A DNA stretch of 64,000 nucleotides from Escherichia phage teqsoen: sequence record MN895436.1, one strand, 5' to 3'. Below, one piece after another: positions 29,876-37,934 of the stretch. Made by a program: the position numbers and the translations under genes. A model generated the notes under the pieces. It saw only the letters and a program-made list of their open reading frames with translations. It ran no database searches and had not been told where the DNA came from. Position 1 is the first letter of the stretch. Each line of letters opens with the position of its first letter.

Positions 29876-30118
29876 TTATTCCTTAATTCCTAGTACTTGT
29901 TTAAAAGTCTCGTCGTAATCAAGACTTTGGCCCGTTTGTTCTTTATGTTTGTATATAATATCACTTACTTCTGATAGCATATTTTTATATGAACGAGTTA
30001 AAGCAGATTTAAGCACGCTGTATCTATCAGGAAATTTACCATGTTCATTATAATAAGCTATTGCTAATTCACGGACTGCCTTTTCAGCAGTCTCCATATA
30101 TTCTTTACGCTTGGTCAT
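29876..30118 (-). CDS. hypothetical protein
   Basis: internal ATG taken; track ORF (to 30277) overlaps upstream gene by 173 nt. Confidence 0.45.
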
Positions 30119-30422
30119 TTTCTTCTCGGTCAAATCGGTGTTTACAATGGCGACATTTATAACGAAGATTACTAGTCTGCCAATGGACCAATTGCACCTG
30201 TTCAGTTCCACATTCAGGGCAATTAGGAACGTTTTTAGAAGCCCTTTCACGACGCTTAACCATAGCCATAATGGCATCCCATGCTGGAGGTTTAAAATCT
30301 AAATCGTCACAACCATGAATCTTTCCACGCATTTCCATATCATCTTCCTCACCAGCCATAATAATTTTAATTAAACTGGAATTACTTGAAGCTGCAATGT
30401 CTTCTAATAAACGCTTTTTCAT
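30105..30422 (-). CDS. zinc-ribbon protein
   Basis: 105 aa with CPECG...CRHCKH. Confidence 0.55.
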
Positions 30423-31348
30423 TTCAATACCTCAATAGCATTACGTAAACCATTTGCTTTTGCATTAAGAGCTTTTAACAATTTGGTGTGTTCTGTAATT
30501 TGGGCTTCAACTTCAATCAAACGGGCATTGAGATATTCACGTTCTTCACTCAGATTATCAACCTTTTCTACTTTAGGCTCTTTTACAACTGTCTTATATG
30601 TATTAGGGTTCTTCAGTTTAATTAGAATGCGTGAACTGTATAACATTGAACCATTATCTTCGGTTTCGTCATACATTTCCACTACGTCCATAATTTTTAA
30701 CATCATGCGGAGTTTATAAGACAACGAACGAATAGTTTTGTTGTGCTTATTAATTTCTTTAGCTGTCATGGTGCCAAGATTACGTGAGTAATAATAAGGA
30801 ACCTGGATATTAATTAATACTGATGAACCACCTGGCTTGTGTGTTACTTCATCAGCAATAACCCAGTCCTTAACATGAACTGTATTTGTACGGTCATCGC
30901 CCGCGGTAAATAGTTTGCGAGCATGCTTAAAAAGCATATTCACTTGGTCATTGAATTGACAAGCAAATTTATCAGCAAATTTAGTTTCAGGAATGGTAGA
31001 AAACCAATCAGCCAAATGAGTCTTTTTAACATCATTAACAATAGTAAATTCAACCAAATCGGTTATAGATGTCTCAGATTTAATGAAGCTCGGCTTCATA
31101 AAGTTTTTAATGTTCTCATGAGCTACAGTAGAAGATAACATACGAGAACGTTTAAACCATTCAAGCAAATTGCCTAACGAATGAGAATAAGCGTTTTGAG
31201 TATCTTTACAGATATGATTTTCCTGACCAACATATTGAAGGAAATCACGAAGAATATTATTGATTACTACTCTGTGTCCGATCTGATAATTACGGTGTTT
31301 AGTAATAAGACTGTCAAAATAATCAATATAATGTTTACGAGTTTTCAT
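30419..31348 (-). CDS. hypothetical protein with C-terminal coiled coil
   Basis: 309 aa; helical heptad-like tail. Confidence 0.6.
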   Translation of the reverse strand: MKTRKHYIDYFDSLITKHRNYQIGHRVVINNILRDFLQYVGQENHICKDTQNAYSHSLGNLLEWFKRSRMLSSTVAHENIKNFMKPSFIKSETSITDLVEFTIVNDVKKTHLADWFSTIPETKFADKFACQFNDQVNMLFKHARKLFTAGDDRTNTVHVKDWVIADEVTHKPGGSSVLINIQVPYYYSRNLGTMTAKEINKHNKTIRSLSYKLRMMLKIMDVVEMYDETEDNGSMLYSSRILIKLKNPNTYKTVVKEPKVEKVDNLSEEREYLNARLIEVEAQITEHTKLLKALNAKANGLRNAIEVLK

Positions 31349-31400
31349 ATTCTTCTCACTTGGTTAATGGTTTATACTCCGAGCCATCCTTGGCTTTAAA

Positions 31401-32402
31401 TTACTTAATTAACTGTAAAGCTTGTTCAAGACGATCAAGACGATTAACGGATTCTTCCCAAATCTTTTTAGCCTGCTCATATTCTTTCTGCGCTTTATTA
31501 GAAATTTCTAGAACTTCTTTATAAGCTTTTTCTAGTGCAATAACTTCTGGACGAATTTCTACCGGTTCAGGTGAATCATCAAGATTATCCATTAGTTCCT
31601 CAAGGGTAGTTTCTTCTTTAGAAGTATTCACAATTTCCTCACATTTTTGTTGATAAATTTCTTTATCAGTAGGTGAATAAGCACATTTCACTTCACGAAG
31701 ACTAATTACATTTTTATATCCTTCCCATCCGCATATATTCTTAAAAGGATATGTATGAATATTTTCTACTGTTTCCATACAAAGTAATGCAGTCTCTAAC
31801 TGACGAGTTATAGTGCTAGCAATTGAGAAAAATTTATTAATATTCTTTTGGTTAGCGTTTGGTGTAAAAAATCCATAATTCACAAAAATAGCTACTTTAT
31901 TTTCATCAAGCTCATATTCTTTTACGATAATCATATCAGAAGCCAAAGGATGAATTTGACGATAATCGCCATAACATAATTTAGAAGCTGATTTTAGAAT
32001 TTGTCCTTTGAAAAGTCTGAAATTACTAATCCAACGACGAGTAAAAATATTCTCAGGGTCTTCTTTATTATTAAGATGATAAGAATTAACATCACCGAAC
32101 CAATTATATCCTACTACATCTTTGGTTCGTTTAATTTCTTTCCCAAAATTACCAAGAATATCCCGATTAACCAAATATGAAAGAAGACGAGACTCTTTAA
32201 AAGTTTTCTTGATAACATCTTTATCTACACGGCTAGAAATTTTACGAATTTCATGAATAAATTTAGTAGAAGAAACAATACTTGCATCAACACTATTGAG
32301 CCATTGATTGATAATAGAAAGAACGATATTTTGACCAAACATCGGTATAGCTTTATCATCAATAACGCTATTGAATGATTTGATATATTCGTTACGAGTC
32401 AT
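31401..32402 (-). CDS. hypothetical protein with C-terminal coiled coil
   Basis: 333 aa from ATG 32402 (GAGGAG RBS) downstream of promoter; track start 32453 lies upstream of the -10. Confidence 0.6.
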   Translation of the reverse strand: MTRNEYIKSFNSVIDDKAIPMFGQNIVLSIINQWLNSVDASIVSSTKFIHEIRKISSRVDKDVIKKTFKESRLLSYLVNRDILGNFGKEIKRTKDVVGYNWFGDVNSYHLNNKEDPENIFTRRWISNFRLFKGQILKSASKLCYGDYRQIHPLASDMIIVKEYELDENKVAIFVNYGFFTPNANQKNINKFFSIASTITRQLETALLCMETVENIHTYPFKNICGWEGYKNVISLREVKCAYSPTDKEIYQQKCEEIVNTSKEETTLEELMDNLDDSPEPVEIRPEVIALEKAYKEVLEISNKAQKEYEQAKKIWEESVNRLDRLEQALQLIK

Positions 32403-32430
32403 AATAATCTCCTCAGTAGAAAGTAAGAAC

Positions 32431-32460
32431 ATTATACCACATCCTTGTGGCAAAGTAAAC
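32431..32460 (-). promoter_or_regulatory. early promoter
   Basis: GTTTAC, 18 nt, TGgTATAAT on minus strand. Confidence 0.7.
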
Positions 32461-33479
32461 TAGTTCAGTGCATTTAGTGCATTGTTCAGTTTAGAACGTT
32501 GTTTTGTCAGATTTTGAATCCTCGATTGAGCTTGTTCTAACGCCTTTTCAGCTTCTAGCACTTCATTGGTCGCTTTAACGAGTTCATCATCTACTGCCTT
32601 GATAGACTTCTCAATCGCATCCGCGTGCCATTTTTCAACAGGTTTAAGACTCGGATTTTCAACAGGAAGAAAATTCACTTTATTGAATTTCCATGCATCA
32701 TTATTACCTGAACTATACATCCAAAATTTAGGATCGTTTGATAAGTAATTGGATAAATTTAAGTTATCTTGCACTTCCTGCTTTTTCTCTTGCGGGACTT
32801 CGTCCTTTCTCAAAAAATCGTATTTAAATGAAACGATCATATCAAGTTCATATGATGTTGTATCTAACTTAAATCGTTCAAAACGAGGTAAAATCTTAGA
32901 TTGAACAGCAGCAACAACATCCATATACTTAAATGCTTCTGTCAGCTGTGATTTAAGACATTCACAAATTGAAAGAGAATTTTTTGTATTAGGTTTAAAG
33001 CTAATTCGTGCAGTTCTATTATTTTCTTTTAATGGTCTTACTTCCATCTGAAGAGTATAACCATCAAATTTCAGATTCTTTAAGTTAATATCAGAGCCTT
33101 TTAATCGACTAGCAGTAGACAAAATTTGCTTTAATTGTTTACGAAATAGAGCAATAAATCTCCATTCAATACGATAATGATTTGGATTAAAAAATCCTGT
33201 TGATAAATCGACCTTACTCTGACCAACACCTTGAACAAATAGAGGATTTTTATAATCAATAGTTTTACAGAAATCGGTGAGCTGCTCACGAGCAGTCATT
33301 TGTGTAATATATCCCGCTTTACTAAAATGACGTAACCATTCACTGCTATTCATATACTTAAAGTGAATGGAACTATTAACTCTATCAGGGTCTAAATTAT
33401 TTTGGCACAAAAATGTCATAACATTACGGGTATAGCTGGCATTACGAACCATATCTTCAATTTGAGAACGAGTTTTCAT
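32460..33479 (-). CDS. hypothetical protein with C-terminal coiled coil
   Basis: 339 aa. Confidence 0.6.
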   Translation of the reverse strand: MKTRSQIEDMVRNASYTRNVMTFLCQNNLDPDRVNSSIHFKYMNSSEWLRHFSKAGYITQMTAREQLTDFCKTIDYKNPLFVQGVGQSKVDLSTGFFNPNHYRIEWRFIALFRKQLKQILSTASRLKGSDINLKNLKFDGYTLQMEVRPLKENNRTARISFKPNTKNSLSICECLKSQLTEAFKYMDVVAAVQSKILPRFERFKLDTTSYELDMIVSFKYDFLRKDEVPQEKKQEVQDNLNLSNYLSNDPKFWMYSSGNNDAWKFNKVNFLPVENPSLKPVEKWHADAIEKSIKAVDDELVKATNEVLEAEKALEQAQSRIQNLTKQRSKLNNALNALN

Positions 33480-33487
33480 AGTGTTCC

Positions 33488-34396
33488 TTAAGATTTAAGT
33501 AAATCAACAATTTTAATTAATTTTTCACGCTCAGATTTAGCTTTACTACTCAATCCAGATAGTCTGAAAATTTCATCGTCATACTGTTGAATAGAAATAT
33601 TCAGCTCTTCAATTTGCTTATTAAAATAATCAATTTGCTCAGAATGTTTTTCATTACTGCGAACTGGTACAGGTTTTGTAGGCAATTTAGTTAAACTGGA
33701 TTCATCCGGGCGATAAATTAAAATACAACTTGAACCAATCGGGCATTTAGCACCAGACACATATTCTAATGTTCCGGCTTCTTTTAAAACTTCAAAAGCT
33801 AAACAGAGATGATGCCCCATATTAACATAATCTGTAGAGCGAGCTCTGACGTAATAATCATCGCCGCGAATACTAAATTTAAAGCATTTAAGGTCTTCTG
33901 TATTATTGGTCTTAAAAATCATTTGTTTATCTAGACCTTTAGCTAATCTAGCGCCTAATGCTAATAATCGTCGTTGATTTTCCCACAAATCTGCGATCAT
34001 TTGGTCAAATGATAATTTCGGCATTAGTCGACCGTAAAGGTCATATCCTTTATTATAATTACGAAGGATTTCACTCGCGTTAATACGAGACAATGCTCCA
34101 ATTTTATTAAGGGCTTTCATAATGCGATTAGATAAACCCATTCCAGACCCGTTTGTTCGTTGTAAATGTTTATCTAATCCAAACCCAATATCAACTTTAA
34201 ATTTATCTAAAATTTCAGCATGAACATCTCTGTCAATAACATTCAAATCCAAAGTTGGGTTAAATCTATGAAAAAATTTATCTGGTTCTCCACGACGAAG
34301 TACAGTCCATTCATTCAATTTTTTATTAACTAAAGATTTAATTACTGCATTGACATTATTAATTACTACTGACATATTTTCCTCACTCAATTTCAA
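33488..34396 (-). CDS. hypothetical protein with C-terminal coiled coil
   Basis: 302 aa. Confidence 0.6.
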   Translation of the reverse strand: MKLSEENMSVVINNVNAVIKSLVNKKLNEWTVLRRGEPDKFFHRFNPTLDLNVIDRDVHAEILDKFKVDIGFGLDKHLQRTNGSGMGLSNRIMKALNKIGALSRINASEILRNYNKGYDLYGRLMPKLSFDQMIADLWENQRRLLALGARLAKGLDKQMIFKTNNTEDLKCFKFSIRGDDYYVRARSTDYVNMGHHLCLAFEVLKEAGTLEYVSGAKCPIGSSCILIYRPDESSLTKLPTKPVPVRSNEKHSEQIDYFNKQIEELNISIQQYDDEIFRLSGLSSKAKSEREKLIKIVDLLKS

Positions 34397-34790
34397 TTTT
34401 ACTAAATATACAGAATAAGATGGAACAGACTATATAAGCACCACACACAGATTGAACTAATACCATTCCAAAGAACCAAACAATATTATCAAACAATGTC
34501 TGTTTTACGTCGAAAGGACGTAAACTTACAGTAATATTATCGCCTTTTTCTATTGATGAATACATCTCTGGTGAAATATATTCGCTAAATCTATAACCGT
34601 CTTTGAGTTCATATACAGCAATAAACGATAAACTAGACCCCTTTCCTTGAGTTCCTGTAAAGGTATTAACTACAGTAACATCATAATCTTTATAATGCAT
34701 ATAATCATTAATAGCATAATAACCATATGCAACTACTACACATAAACAACATATCAATAAATTCAATCTTTTAATTATCAACTGTTTCAT
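34383..34790 (-). CDS. membrane protein
   Basis: 135 aa; N- and C-terminal hydrophobic helices. Confidence 0.55.
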   Translation of the reverse strand: MKQLIIKRLNLLICCLCVVVAYGYYAINDYMHYKDYDVTVVNTFTGTQGKGSSLSFIAVYELKDGYRFSEYISPEMYSSIEKGDNITVSLRPFDVKQTLFDNIVWFFGMVLVQSVCGAYIVCSILFCIFSKIEIE

Positions 34791-34819
34791 AATAATCTCA
34801 ATTAAAAGGGCTTAGAACC

Positions 34820-34843
34820 ATTATACCATCCTTGGTATAAAGC
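34820..34843 (-). promoter_or_regulatory. candidate middle (MotA-type) promoter
   Basis: GCTTTA box, 12 nt, TGgTATAAT on minus strand. Confidence 0.35.
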
Positions 34844-34845
34844 GG

Positions 34846-35373
34846 TTATGCGAGTACCGTCTTTAACCGTTCTTCAAACTTCCGAAGAGTATTCTGGCGT
34901 TCAGCTCTTTGCTTTTTATAAGTTTCAATACGCTCTGAAATGAGAGTGTATCGTTCATTTACTGATTCTTTCATAAAATCAGGAATTTCACGAGAAGCTT
35001 TAATCTCATCAAATTTATCAATAACAGCTTGCTCTTCGGCAATTAAGTTATCATACATCAAAATATCTTTCTTGATGAACTCAATATCTTCTTGAGTTAC
35101 ACGAGATAATTTAGATGCTTTATCCTTTTTGTACTGTTCATTAGTATCACGAGACCAGTGTAATGTACGATTTTTATTCGTATTCTTGTAAATTTCTACA
35201 ATACCAATCTCATCAATAATAACGATCCAATTCCAACGGGATTTGTAAATCTGCCCTCCATCAACCGTGATTTCACCTTCGATTGAGATGTCATTAAAGA
35301 ACTTGCTTTGTGCTTCAGATTTAAATTTACCATCGTTATAATTTACCAGGTTGAAAATATCTTTAGCGTTCAT
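34846..35373 (-). CDS. hypothetical protein with C-terminal coiled coil
   Basis: 175 aa; GGAGGAACAG RBS. Confidence 0.6.
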   Translation of the reverse strand: MNAKDIFNLVNYNDGKFKSEAQSKFFNDISIEGEITVDGGQIYKSRWNWIVIIDEIGIVEIYKNTNKNRTLHWSRDTNEQYKKDKASKLSRVTQEDIEFIKKDILMYDNLIAEEQAVIDKFDEIKASREIPDFMKESVNERYTLISERIETYKKQRAERQNTLRKFEERLKTVLA

Positions 35374-35401
35374 TTTCTGTTCCTCCGTAGTTGATAGTTG
35401 T

Positions 35402-35431
35402 ATAGTACCACAGAGGAACAGTCTTGTAAAC
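35402..35431 (-). promoter_or_regulatory. early promoter cassette
   Basis: GTTTAC, 18 nt, TGgTACTAT. Confidence 0.7.
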
Positions 35432-35433
35432 CA

Positions 35434-35748
35434 CTAAAAGAAACTTCTTTCACAATTTTTTCCACTGAACCAAGCGCTCACTGCTTTCTTAGTCTCAGGA
35501 GCAGTGTTATCCATAAACCATTCAAAGGCAGCCTTTTTATGATTCTGGAGGGCTTCTCGGGCTTTAATCTGCTCACGGTCTATTAACACTAACATATGAG
35601 CCTTTCTTGTCACCAAGGGCTTCTTATGATTCTTGGAGTATTCCCAGTCATTTGTCCAACGCATTGTCGTTGCGAACTGATGAACCGCGTCTTTAATTTT
35701 AGTTTCATAAATTTCACGAGCCTTTGAGTATAACATCATTACCTCCAT
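35434..35748 (-). CDS. hypothetical protein
   Basis: 104-aa ORF. Confidence 0.5.
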   Translation of the reverse strand: MEVMMLYSKAREIYETKIKDAVHQFATTMRWTNDWEYSKNHKKPLVTRKAHMLVLIDREQIKAREALQNHKKAAFEWFMDNTAPETKKAVSAWFSGKNCERSFF

Positions 35749-35837
35749 TTACCAGTTTAATTCTAGTCATCTTTTTAATGGCAGTCCATATAATCTATTT
35801 CTGAACTGCCTTTTTGTCATAGAAGGCCTCTTATGAA

Positions 35838-36818
35838 TTATTTCAGAAGAGTAACCTCAGCGATTTCTTCCCAACCGTTTTTGTCGGTCATAATAAAGTC
35901 AGCAAGATAAAGCGCAGTACGCAGTGAAACATTGCGTAAACGATTAACATTAACTTTCATCCATGATAATGCTTTATAAGTTTCTTCATCAGAAAGACCG
36001 CGCTTTTGCATCATGTCAGTTGAAAGAATAACATCTTCAACCCTGACCATAATTTCTTCATTAGTGTGAACACCCAAATCTAAATAAACTGAGCGGGACA
36101 CTAATGCTTGTAAATGTGGAGCAAGTTTAGTACCACGGTCTAATTCGCGGTCAATGTCAACGTTTGTGATAAAAACAATCGTTCCTTTAAATTCAAACTC
36201 ACGCTCAATGCCTTTTTCTTCTAAGTAAGAAGATGCAGTGCTCCAGCAGACTTTACGGGTCTCTCCAGTGTCCAGAGCAGCTTTCAGAAGATTAAGAATG
36301 TCCATATCAGAGAAAACATCCACATCATCAATCAAAAGTACAGAATTCTCTTCACGATTATTCCAAAGCTGTTCATAAAGACCGATACCGGAGATTTTAC
36401 CGTTAATGCTTTTATATTCAATGTATCCAATATCATTTGCTTTATTTAAAGCTTTATCTAAAGAATACGTTTTACCAATACCTGCTGCTCCCGAGATAAT
36501 TAATGAACGAATGTTTCCGTTAATAATACCATTCGTCATCATTCCCATAACATTAAATCTTTTATTAATGCGGGTTTTCATATCTTCATATGATTCTTTA
36601 ACTTCTTCAACTTTTACACCATCATATGAAATGTCTGATTTGTAAACCCAAACACCGCGACGCTTACCGTCAATTTCAACAAAAACTTTACCATCTCCTT
36701 GTGCATCTACCGGAGCATTATCTGGGAACCATTCGCCTAAGAGCTCAAAAGTTCCAGAGATTTCTTTACCGAAGTAGATACCCTTATTGATAGTTACAGT
36801 TTTCATTTTATTCTCCAA
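35838..36818 (-). CDS. P-loop NTPase
   Basis: 326 aa; Walker A GAAGIGKT, Walker B LLIDDVD. Confidence 0.65.
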   Translation of the reverse strand: MENKMKTVTINKGIYFGKEISGTFELLGEWFPDNAPVDAQGDGKVFVEIDGKRRGVWVYKSDISYDGVKVEEVKESYEDMKTRINKRFNVMGMMTNGIINGNIRSLIISGAAGIGKTYSLDKALNKANDIGYIEYKSINGKISGIGLYEQLWNNREENSVLLIDDVDVFSDMDILNLLKAALDTGETRKVCWSTASSYLEEKGIEREFEFKGTIVFITNVDIDRELDRGTKLAPHLQALVSRSVYLDLGVHTNEEIMVRVEDVILSTDMMQKRGLSDEETYKALSWMKVNVNRLRNVSLRTALYLADFIMTDKNGWEEIAEVTLLK

Positions 36819-36840
36819 ATCCGTATCAGTTGATAGTTGT

Positions 36841-36870
36841 ATAGTACCATAAAGCTTTATGCTTGTAAAC
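36841..36870 (-). promoter_or_regulatory. early promoter cassette
   Basis: GTTTAC, 18 nt, TGgTACTAT; leader shares about 45 bp with the 10414-10460 copy. Confidence 0.7.
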
Positions 36871-36892
36871 CATTTTGTGAAAAATTTTTGAA

Positions 36893-36918
36893 ATAAAAAA
36901 GGGAGCCCGAAGGCTCCC
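36893..36918 (-). terminator. hairpin terminator
   Basis: GGGAGCC-CGAA-GGCTCCC followed by T-run on minus strand. Confidence 0.7.
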
Positions 36919-36920
36919 TA

Positions 36921-37934
36921 TCATTTATAATAACTTCGGTGGTTTTCAAGATAGACCTTCTCAAGGAAGTCATCCCAGAAACTCATGTCTACTTTTTGCT
37001 GCATACCGTTCTTAGAAGCTTCAGTAGATGCTGCTTCTACTTGATCGACCACATCTTCCAAAAACTCTTGAACTGTTTTAAATGGATGTTTACCCAACTT
37101 CACGTCGAGAATAAATGGAGCATCTTTGAGTGGATAAACCAAGTCACCAGTTTTGTAAATTTCCAATAGTTGGAGTCCACCACGGCAAGCATGACTCAGA
37201 GCTTTCCAGTCAATACCTTCATTGGCTTCGGCCTTACGAGCACGTTCACCATATTCAGCATCTAATTTGTTCAGTGACTGCTTAAGCTCAATAAGAGAAA
37301 GCGTTGTCTGATATTTACGACCCAACACAGTGTAGAACGTTTGTGGGCCTGTTTTCTCATGATTATGGAACACCCATTCACAGAATTCGTTTTCTGGAAG
37401 ACGATGCTTAATATCTTCAACTTTAGTACGACGCTGCTTAATGGAACCGTCTTCTTGGTAATCAACCCATTGCTCAGGGATTTGATTAACTACTTTCAAT
37501 ACATCGCGTAATGCAGCCAAACGAGAACCCTTGACACCGTATTTAGAAGCTTGCTTGCGGACATATCCTAAATAGGATTTCATGTTAGTCGTATAAAAAC
37601 GAGAACGGTTGTCTTGAATAAACTTCCACACATCAGGCAAATCAGATTTAACCACTAGTTTAGGTGGAGTATGAAGCATATCCAATGCTACAGTTTCACC
37701 ATCTGCTGCTAATTTAAAGAAATATTTAAGACTGTATAGTTCATGGTCAATATCATCTTTAGTGTTTTTAGATGATGTATTGTTAGTATTTTTACTCATA
37801 TGCTCTTTAACATTTCCGACAAGAATATCGCGAGCAGGAGGAACAAAGATTTCTTTAAAATCTACATCAGATTCTGGGGTAGAAGTTCCATAAAGATGAC
37901 TACCAAAATAGCTTTTCATTACTGTTTTCATCAT
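36921..37934 (-). CDS. Pol-beta-superfamily nucleotidyltransferase-like protein
   Basis: 337 aa; N-terminal GS-x10-DVD motif (YFGSHLYGTSTPESDVDF). Confidence 0.55.
   Translation of the reverse strand: MMKTVMKSYFGSHLYGTSTPESDVDFKEIFVPPARDILVGNVKEHMSKNTNNTSSKNTKDDIDHELYSLKYFFKLAADGETVALDMLHTPPKLVVKSDLPDVWKFIQDNRSRFYTTNMKSYLGYVRKQASKYGVKGSRLAALRDVLKVVNQIPEQWVDYQEDGSIKQRRTKVEDIKHRLPENEFCEWVFHNHEKTGPQTFYTVLGRKYQTTLSLIELKQSLNKLDAEYGERARKAEANEGIDWKALSHACRGGLQLLEIYKTGDLVYPLKDAPFILDVKLGKHPFKTVQEFLEDVVDQVEAASTEASKNGMQQKVDMSFWDDFLEKVYLENHRSYYK

Follow-up and report, generated by a model that had tools for sequence, protein, structure and literature searches.

Why should five neighbouring genes of a T4-like phage all end in a Lys/Glu/Leu-rich helix, and is that tail all that they share? 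The question is raised by a locus in Escherichia phage teqsoen (MN895436.1), of which a stretch of 64,000 nucleotides (nt) with 265 open reading frames (ORFs), hereafter the window, was analysed. To judge from its sequence, the window is a Tequatrovirus (T4-like) genome, and the 6 kb around the array share 97-98% identity with many Tequatrovirus genomes and are collinear with the nrdC-mobD interval of phage T4. A first-pass annotation had flagged five co-oriented ORFs at this locus, which it read as a tandem array of diversified bodies on a common tail. Their coordinates and common orientation were confirmed, all five lying on the minus strand, and they proved to be homologues of T4 nrdC.3, nrdC.4, nrdC.5, nrdC.6 and nrdC.8, with 309, 333, 339, 302 and 175 amino acids (aa) as first read and 61%, 96% (95.8%), 95%, 96% and 98% identity to the T4 proteins, respectively. 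The genes do neighbour one another, but nrdC.7 (34383-34790) separates nrdC.6 from nrdC.8 before the fifth, and the array is hence not contiguous. The fourth ORF, 33488-34396, exists as well, but its start at 34396 is a TTG extension (302 aa); the likely gene is 33488-34375, because residue 8 is the first in the PHROG match and the protein annotated in related genomes has 295 aa. What becomes newly apparent is that nrdC.3 to nrdC.6 make up one paralogue family, whose design is that of body, linker and coiled coil and to which nrdC.8 does not belong. The original observation was largely correct and its interpretation half right: the genes belong to a block already known from T4, and the only member that has been characterised is a counter-defence gene.

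The relationship is clear at the sequence level for nrdC.3 and nrdC.4, which are paralogues that align over their full length with N- and C-terminus in common, both match phrog_1435, and find each other by BLASTP (expectation value, E, 1e-5) as well as by hhalign (probability 97.5, E 7e-12). A joint alignment of nrdC.3, nrdC.4, nrdC.5 and the nrdC.5-like protein of Dhakavirus and Gaprivervirus (25% identical to nrdC.5) revealed a common N-terminal M(K)TR..EY, F70, P163, an MD.VE helix and a terminal L..A...LK. With shallow alignments, hhalign initially joined only nrdC.3 to nrdC.4 and gave a weak signal between nrdC.4 and nrdC.5, and no link of nrdC.6 to the others was found. That link emerged after Mosigvirus homologues and the proteins P0206, P0208 and P0209 were added to the profiles. 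The latter three are distant relatives among the only 14 proteins matched when 1.84 billion representative proteins were searched exhaustively with the nrdC.6 profile as a hidden Markov model (HMM), and by eye their tails fall between the nrdC.6 type and the nrdC.5 type (HYAD.MEKSI ... E[IV]F[RQ]LS ... QR.[KL]L..AI[KE]AL).

A conservative hhalign run, restricted to solidly assigned sequences and leaving out the weakly assigned Maestro, Mexia and PG7, connected the full-length profiles of nrdC.6 and nrdC.5 (probability 96.3, E 1.6e-9 over 236 columns; reversed-profile control 0.47), of nrdC.5 and nrdC.3/4 (93.6, E 2e-7, 268 columns; control 0.3) and of nrdC.6 and nrdC.3/4 (72, E 3.4e-5, 235 columns; control 0.29), with alignments that reach the extreme C-terminus. 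The bodies alone were also related, with E values of 3.8e-6 for nrdC.6 and nrdC.5, 9.1e-6 for nrdC.5 and nrdC.3/4 and 1.9e-4 for nrdC.6 and nrdC.3/4, against 0.42, 0.47 and 0.53 in the respective reversed controls; they can be aligned after all, having been described earlier as too diverged for this. For the tails alone the values were 1.1e-7 (nrdC.6 and nrdC.5; control 0.18) and 4e-4 (nrdC.5 and nrdC.3/4; control 0.068). Reversed profiles preserve composition and periodicity, and over all comparisons, tails included, these controls ranged from 0.068 to 0.53; comparisons with NrdC.10 as a further control gave E values of about 0.5. Run against all 265 ORFs in the window, the nrdC.6 profile matched nrdC.5 and nrdC.4 best, apart from itself. 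Modelled with AlphaFold2, nrdC.5 and nrdC.6 run through one and the same series of elements (helix pair, hairpin, helix, hairpin, disordered linker, terminal helices), and both models match the same BFVD proteins, uncharacterised and of 310-335 aa from T4-like phages, among them those of Klebsiella phage Mineola (E 1.1e-7 for nrdC.5 and 1.2e-3 for nrdC.6) and Yersinia phage fHe-Yen9-01 (1.7e-6 and 2.7e-4). Cross-hits in PHROG tie together families 1435, 2351, 26858, 33957, 31182 and 23608, which come from several genera. Whole-length paralogy of nrdC.3, nrdC.4, nrdC.5 and nrdC.6 is therefore well supported by the profile comparisons. Between the paralogues, DNA repeats amounted to short chance matches only; no recent gene conversion has thus taken place among them.

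The fifth ORF behaved differently. Compared with every family, body and tail, nrdC.8 showed no detectable relationship, its hhalign E values of 0.016-0.41 being close to the reversed controls; by these comparisons it is outside the family and simply has a helical C-terminus. The pairwise HMM-HMM comparison that the first-pass annotation had proposed thus related four of the five genes and left nrdC.8 at the level of the controls, and its picture of diversified bodies on a common tail gives way to whole-gene paralogues plus an unrelated gene that is the most conserved of the five.

The description of the C-termini as Lys/Glu/Leu-rich helical segments held for all five ORFs. Charged and aliphatic residues abound in the tails, Pro and Gly are almost absent, and a heptad a/d score over 28 residues exceeded shuffles in all of them (p<=0.016 with protein composition, p<=0.028 with tail composition; 0.009 and 0.019 for nrdC.8); this is a simple home-made score, not COILS or Marcoil, and in nrdC.3 and nrdC.4 one internal helix slightly outscores the tail. 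AlphaFold2 predicted for nrdC.5 (26-sequence alignment; predicted local distance difference test, pLDDT, 72.9) a body, a 53-residue disordered linker and a single unbroken helix, and for nrdC.6 (55 sequences; pLDDT 79.2) a body, a short disordered linker and two helices (Table 1); a continuous alpha-helix of at least four heptads is present in both, the two proteins modelled. Within families, conservation is higher in the tail than in the body for four of the five (83-88% versus 58% for nrdC.3, 56-67% versus 40-51% for nrdC.4, 56-69% versus 38% for nrdC.6 and 78-82% versus 63-67% for nrdC.8), nrdC.5 being the exception. The terminal L..A...LK followed directly by the stop codon is conserved in nrdC.3, nrdC.4, nrdC.5, nrdC.6 and distant relatives.

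The paralogue family is confined to Straboviridae (T4-like phages), distant genera having a single copy and the T-even group three or four. Tequatrovirus carries nrdC.3, nrdC.4, nrdC.5 and nrdC.6; in Mosigvirus a tandem of nrdC.6-like, nrdC.5-like and nrdC.3-like genes is found; the arrays of Dhakavirus and Gaprivervirus comprise nrdC.4, a distant nrdC.5-like gene and nrdC.6 and lack nrdC.7; and a lone gene of 324-335 aa with a similar tail lies near nrdC in Karamvirus, Jiaodavirus-like Klebsiella phages and Acinetobacter phages. In a collection of 50,697 phage records, matches were found in 741 records for nrdC.8 and also for nrdC.6, 653 for nrdC.3, 581 for nrdC.5 and 553 for nrdC.4. Both nrdC.6 and nrdC.8 occur in all 741 T-even-group records, and nrdC.8 is at least 60% identical in all the records that carry it. 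A scan of viral contigs with the nrdC.3/nrdC.4 alignment returned only 14 loci, all T-even-like. A word-indexed search returned nrdC.3 and nrdC.5 types and not the nrdC.4 and Dhakavirus types, both of which were part of the query alignment, probably owing to the tool's candidate selection. In the same region, Klebsiella phage Mexia (L023, 11724-12149) and Enterobacter phage PG7 (L024, 15571-16008) encode proteins of 141-145 aa that end in an amphipathic helix (...ELKNRIELIRYEVLK and ...AQLRIIEAREILWKS) and have no detectable relationship to nrdC.8.

The presence/absence polymorphism across T-even genomes that had been anticipated was indeed seen, together with fusions. In Salmonella phage Manna (L003, 6215-7252), nrdC.6 is fused in frame to the linker and tail of nrdC.4, with loss of nrdC.5 and a QQ..EI microhomology at the junction. 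A deletion in ACG-C40 (L026, 4805-5216) runs from nrdC.5 into nrdC.3 and leaves an N-terminal stub of nrdC.5 and the nrdC.3 tail, and in Pinarejo (L027, 4001-4141) nrdC.6 is nearly wholly deleted, its last 47 codons remaining. Shigella phage Sf25 (P0094) has an internal tandem duplication of 83 residues in nrdC.6. The T4 reference itself (L001, NC_000866, 12067-12894) differs by a 1-nt indel in nrdC.6 from the window (33506-33605) and most relatives, so that its product has 275 aa, ends ...IFLFNNMMMKFSDYLD and stops short of the end of the helical tail; either a mutation of the laboratory strain or a sequencing error accounts for the difference. Natural deletions, in-frame fusions and a frameshift mark the array as accessory, and these variants show its genes to be dispensable and recombinogenic.

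Variation takes another form in nrdC.3. Across the array the DNA of the window is 94-99% identical to that of T4, except in the nrdC.3 body (30514-31310), where the value is only 51-72%. The divergent block is a sharp mosaic with breakpoints inside the gene, at the conserved N-terminus and the conserved tail. At least three allele classes are visible as identity bands in the collection, and body and tail alleles reassort, both combinations being found; in these alignments the nrdC.3 body is a hypervariable cassette. A metagenomic sequence (P0093; L021, 120-641; ENA ERZ27280904) joins an unrelated body of 120 aa, in frame, to the C-terminal 53 residues of nrdC.5, and this ORF is followed by the nrdC.4 promoter and gene start. 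Its N-terminal part had no match in the phage collection and no informative PHROG or Pfam family. The sequence comes from one contig of 803 nt; the body may truly have been replaced, or the contig may have been assembled as a chimera.

As to function, published data concern nrdC.5. An evolved T4 clone with compensatory deletions did not plate on ECOR17 or on MG1655 carrying ECOR17 dsr1, and T4 nrdC.5 expressed from a plasmid restored plating on dsr1 cells; Dsr1 is a SIR2-domain defence protein (Srikant, Guegler and Laub 2022, PMC9391042). The window gene 32460-33479 is the orthologue of this T4 gene, with a full-length match to PF23882 (DUF7235; 406.3 bits against a gathering score of 30; residues 1-339 on model positions 1-307 of 307). 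No PF23882 match (E<=0.1) was found for nrdC.3, nrdC.4, nrdC.6 or nrdC.8. Unlike NrdC.5, the products of nrdC.3, nrdC.4 and nrdC.6 fall below the DUF7235 model and are filed separately (PF26897, PF26899, phrog_1435, phrog_2257), PF26897 (nrdC.3) and PF26899 (nrdC.6) being separate families in the precomputed domains of the protein database; they nevertheless have the architecture of NrdC.5 and remote homology to it over body and tail. The searchable literature holds nothing on nrdC.3, nrdC.4 or nrdC.6 and no mechanism for nrdC.5. Counter-defence variation had been proposed for the whole array, and what the literature bears out is one member of it.

The invariant columns of the family are almost all hydrophobic or structural rather than catalytic-looking, and Pfam, NCBIfam and PADLOC gave no match to an enzyme family, only generic coiled-coil cross-hits (LmuB, BrxC and PgrA, these weak, and DUF4164); because of this, we infer that the proteins act as binders or inhibitors. 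Sequence searches of the PDB with nrdC.4, nrdC.5, nrdC.6 and nrdC.8 returned nothing meaningful. The thioredoxin identity given by the GenBank product name was rejected, since none of the five proteins has a thioredoxin or glutaredoxin Pfam match. Many deposited T-even genomes give the name 'thioredoxin' to every nrdC.x gene, and several GenBank records carry it on all ten genes of the region (30105-37934 in the window); the label seems to have been propagated from the positional nrdC.x gene names, and in one 2026 paper nrdC.8 is taken for a nucleotide reductase, apparently from the gene name.

We lean, with some reserve, towards the view that the array is a tandem family of four paralogous accessory genes whose products bind defence proteins and carry a coiled-coil oligomerisation tail. 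All four are built alike: about 225 residues make up a globular alpha/beta body, 15-55 a flexible linker and 45-55 an amphipathic heptad helix ending in L..A...LK. Made early or in the middle of infection, the proteins would bind or inhibit host immune proteins stoichiometrically; the body would set target specificity and diversify, and the tails of several molecules would join in a coiled coil and so render the inhibitor multivalent. On this proposal, nrdC.5 would neutralise the SIR2-domain NADase defence protein Dsr1, and nrdC.3, nrdC.4 and nrdC.6, whose counter-defence role is suggested by their homology, would most likely neutralise other host defence proteins, possibly related ones. It is conceivable, if doubtful, that the four paralogues form a diversified arsenal on one scaffold, each body retuned to a different immune protein (e.g. 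SIR2/NADase effectors), with N-terminus and tail serving both as an oligomerisation module and as recombination anchors for body exchange between phages, of the kind seen in the mosaic nrdC.3 allele and the P0093 body replacement.

Several points weigh against the proposed family of oligomeric defence-protein binders. The link between nrdC.6 and nrdC.3/4 is the weaker one (probability 72) and partly transitive via nrdC.5. Confidence in the models is moderate (pLDDT 73 and 79), the tail of nrdC.6 may form a hairpin within its own chain instead, and oligomerisation is suggested by a heptad pattern and by isolated helices in single-chain predictions. Functional data exist for nrdC.5 alone, whose action may be direct or indirect, its mechanism being unpublished in the literature searched. 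Moreover, nrdC.6 and nrdC.8 are well conserved in the genus and fit an arms race more poorly than nrdC.3 does.

Other explanations were considered for the same data. The architecture could be modular, unrelated bodies having been swapped by recombination onto one coiled-coil tail as the sole common element, and the unrelated body on the nrdC.5 tail in P0093, the reassorting nrdC.3 alleles with a body replaced between conserved ends, and the nrdC.6 body joined to an nrdC.4 tail in Manna would all suit such a scheme. Yet the bodies of nrdC.3 to nrdC.6 are homologous on their own, the nrdC.8 tail is unrelated to the others, the paralogues share no repeats at the DNA level by which swapping could be driven, deletions at microhomology rather than cassette exchanges account for the variants of Manna and ACG-C40, and P0093 is a single short contig, possibly chimeric, whose body has no match in the phage collection; we regard modular swapping as quite improbable. 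That the Lys/Glu/Leu-rich ends are a compositional coincidence of unrelated genes in an AT-rich phage is scarcely credible: nrdC.8 is indeed unrelated, and the generic coiled-coil cross-hits show how easily such segments match each other, but the heptad score stands above shuffles of tail composition, the tail profiles match in register where reversed profiles fail, and the bodies are homologous. For nrdC.3 to nrdC.6, coincidence is refuted by the profile comparisons with their reversed controls.

It is unlikely, in our view, that the paralogues are host-takeover or housekeeping accessory proteins (e.g. binders of host or phage complexes) with an indirect or incidental effect on Dsr1. The unpublished mechanism of nrdC.5, the high conservation of nrdC.6 and nrdC.8 throughout the T-even-group records and the neighbouring nrdC.10 and nrdC.11, which are conserved across Straboviridae and suggest another pathway, speak in its favour. 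However, the genes can be dispensed with, deletions or frameshifts have hit them repeatedly in natural isolates and evolved T4, nrdC.5 in trans is enough by itself against dsr1 (PMC9391042), and a hypervariable body such as that of nrdC.3 is typical of arms-race loci. The tails might also bind one common partner or build a hetero-oligomer of the paralogues instead of homo-oligomers, as the conserved L..A...LK-stop end in nrdC.3 to nrdC.6 and distant relatives, the co-location and co-orientation of the genes and the stronger constraint on tail than on body would allow; this we consider very unlikely, and a hetero-complex is not required, since PG7, Mexia and Maestro carry a single member with a similar tail.

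Set beside known systems, the array resembles other accessory counter-defence genes and 'anti-defence islands' of T4 (tifA, dmd, adfA, ipI and ipIII; PMC9391042) in that these are non-essential early genes which are clustered, variably present, subject to microhomology deletions and involved in setting host range. Those genes are small and mutually unrelated, whereas here one gene has been expanded to four large paralogues with a common tail. A possible analogy for NrdC.5 is DSAD1 of SPbeta-like phages, which is described as binding and neutralising a SIR2-domain NADase directly (PMC10973363, PMC10981675); compared by description only, it differs in its target, DSR2 and not Dsr1, and no coiled-coil tail is reported for it.

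Table 1. Genes, protein parts and promoter-like sites of the nrdC.3-nrdC.8 region, in positions of the window.
Feature	Position	Strand	Description
nrdC.3 homologue	30419-31348	-	309 aa; phrog_1435, E 1.1e-115, full length; family member
nrdC.3 tail	30422-30565	-	residues ~262-309
nrdC.4 homologue	31401-32402	-	333 aa; phrog_1435, E 9.9e-168, full length; family member
nrdC.4 tail	31404-31547	-	residues ~286-333
nrdC.4 ribosome-binding site	6 nt before ATG at 32402	-	GAGGAG
T4 early-type promoter-like site	32459-32431	-	TTTACT (G before), 17 nt, TG-n-TATAAT; 10/12 sigma-70 matches
nrdC.5 homologue	32460-33479	-	339 aa; DUF7235; family member
nrdC.5 body		-	residues 1-225 (AlphaFold2)
nrdC.5 disordered linker	32646-32804	-	residues 226-278 (AlphaFold2)
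nrdC.5 helix	32463-32633	-	residues 283-338 (AlphaFold2)
nrdC.6 homologue	33488-34375	-	295 aa from likely ATG; phrog_2257; family member
nrdC.6 body		-	residues 1-226 (AlphaFold2)
nrdC.6 linker	33653-33697	-	residues 227-241 (AlphaFold2)
nrdC.6 helices	33491-33652	-	residues 242-271 and 277-294 (AlphaFold2)
nrdC.7 homologue	34383-34790	-	135 aa, predicted membrane protein; phrog_2547, T4 annotation; outside family
T4 middle-type (MotA-box-like) promoter-like site	34843-34820	-	GCTTTA, 12 nt, TATAAT; read from sequence
nrdC.8 homologue	34846-35373	-	175 aa; phrog_2274
nrdC.8 heptad-patterned C-terminus	34849-34986	-	residues ~130-175
T4 early-type promoter-like site	35430-35402	-	upstream of nrdC.8; TTTACA, 17 nt, TACTAT, TG; 9/12
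Early-type promoter match	36869-36841	-	before nrdC.10

Two internal promoters had been proposed for the array, at 32431-32460 and 34820-34843. Their sequences do fit the early-type and middle-type consensus, respectively, the one lying upstream of nrdC.4 directly after the nrdC.5 stop codon and the other upstream of nrdC.7, without a -35 element and hence missed by the sigma-70 scan. However, promoter-like matches are not enriched in the region (44 against 37.3 +/- 5.6 expected from shuffles), and for this reason all the sites remain candidates, as consensus matches only, and the individually regulated modules that they had suggested are unsupported. The early-type match before nrdC.8 (35430-35402) had been missed in the first-pass annotation. 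The sequence AAGGATG(T)GGTATAATG(G)TTCT is common to the two sites (32441-32452 and 34826-34837), and its copy at 32441-32452 forms a small hairpin (CCACAAGGATGTGG) that overlaps the spacer. Upstream of the array lie nrdC.9, the AAA-type ATPase gene nrdC.10 and the nucleotidyltransferase gene nrdC.11. Between nrdC.11 and nrdC.10, a strong GC-rich hairpin (36900-36919; AGGGAGCC-TTCG-GGCTCCCT) is followed by a T-run on the minus strand and is likely an intrinsic terminator, and the promoter match before nrdC.10 stands just downstream of it. No heptad signal was found in nrdC.7 with the score used for the tails. A hydrophobic ORF of 62-71 aa occurs in Gaprivervirus and Dhakavirus between the nrdC.5-like gene and nrdC.6 (L004, 5826-6041; L005, 5855-6043; L006, 5856-6071); a small membrane protein thus recurs in the array at differing positions, that of Tequatrovirus, nrdC.7, being between nrdC.6 and nrdC.8.

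T4 is the best-studied lytic phage, and most of its genes between nrdC and mobD are without a function. As remote paralogues of nrdC.5, the sole gene of the block with a known role, nrdC.3, nrdC.4 and nrdC.6 become concrete counter-defence candidates, and a shared design of a specific body combined with an oligomerising tail is suggested. On the strength of this relationship several orphan Pfam and PHROG families could be merged, and the widespread mislabelling of these genes as thioredoxins could be corrected.

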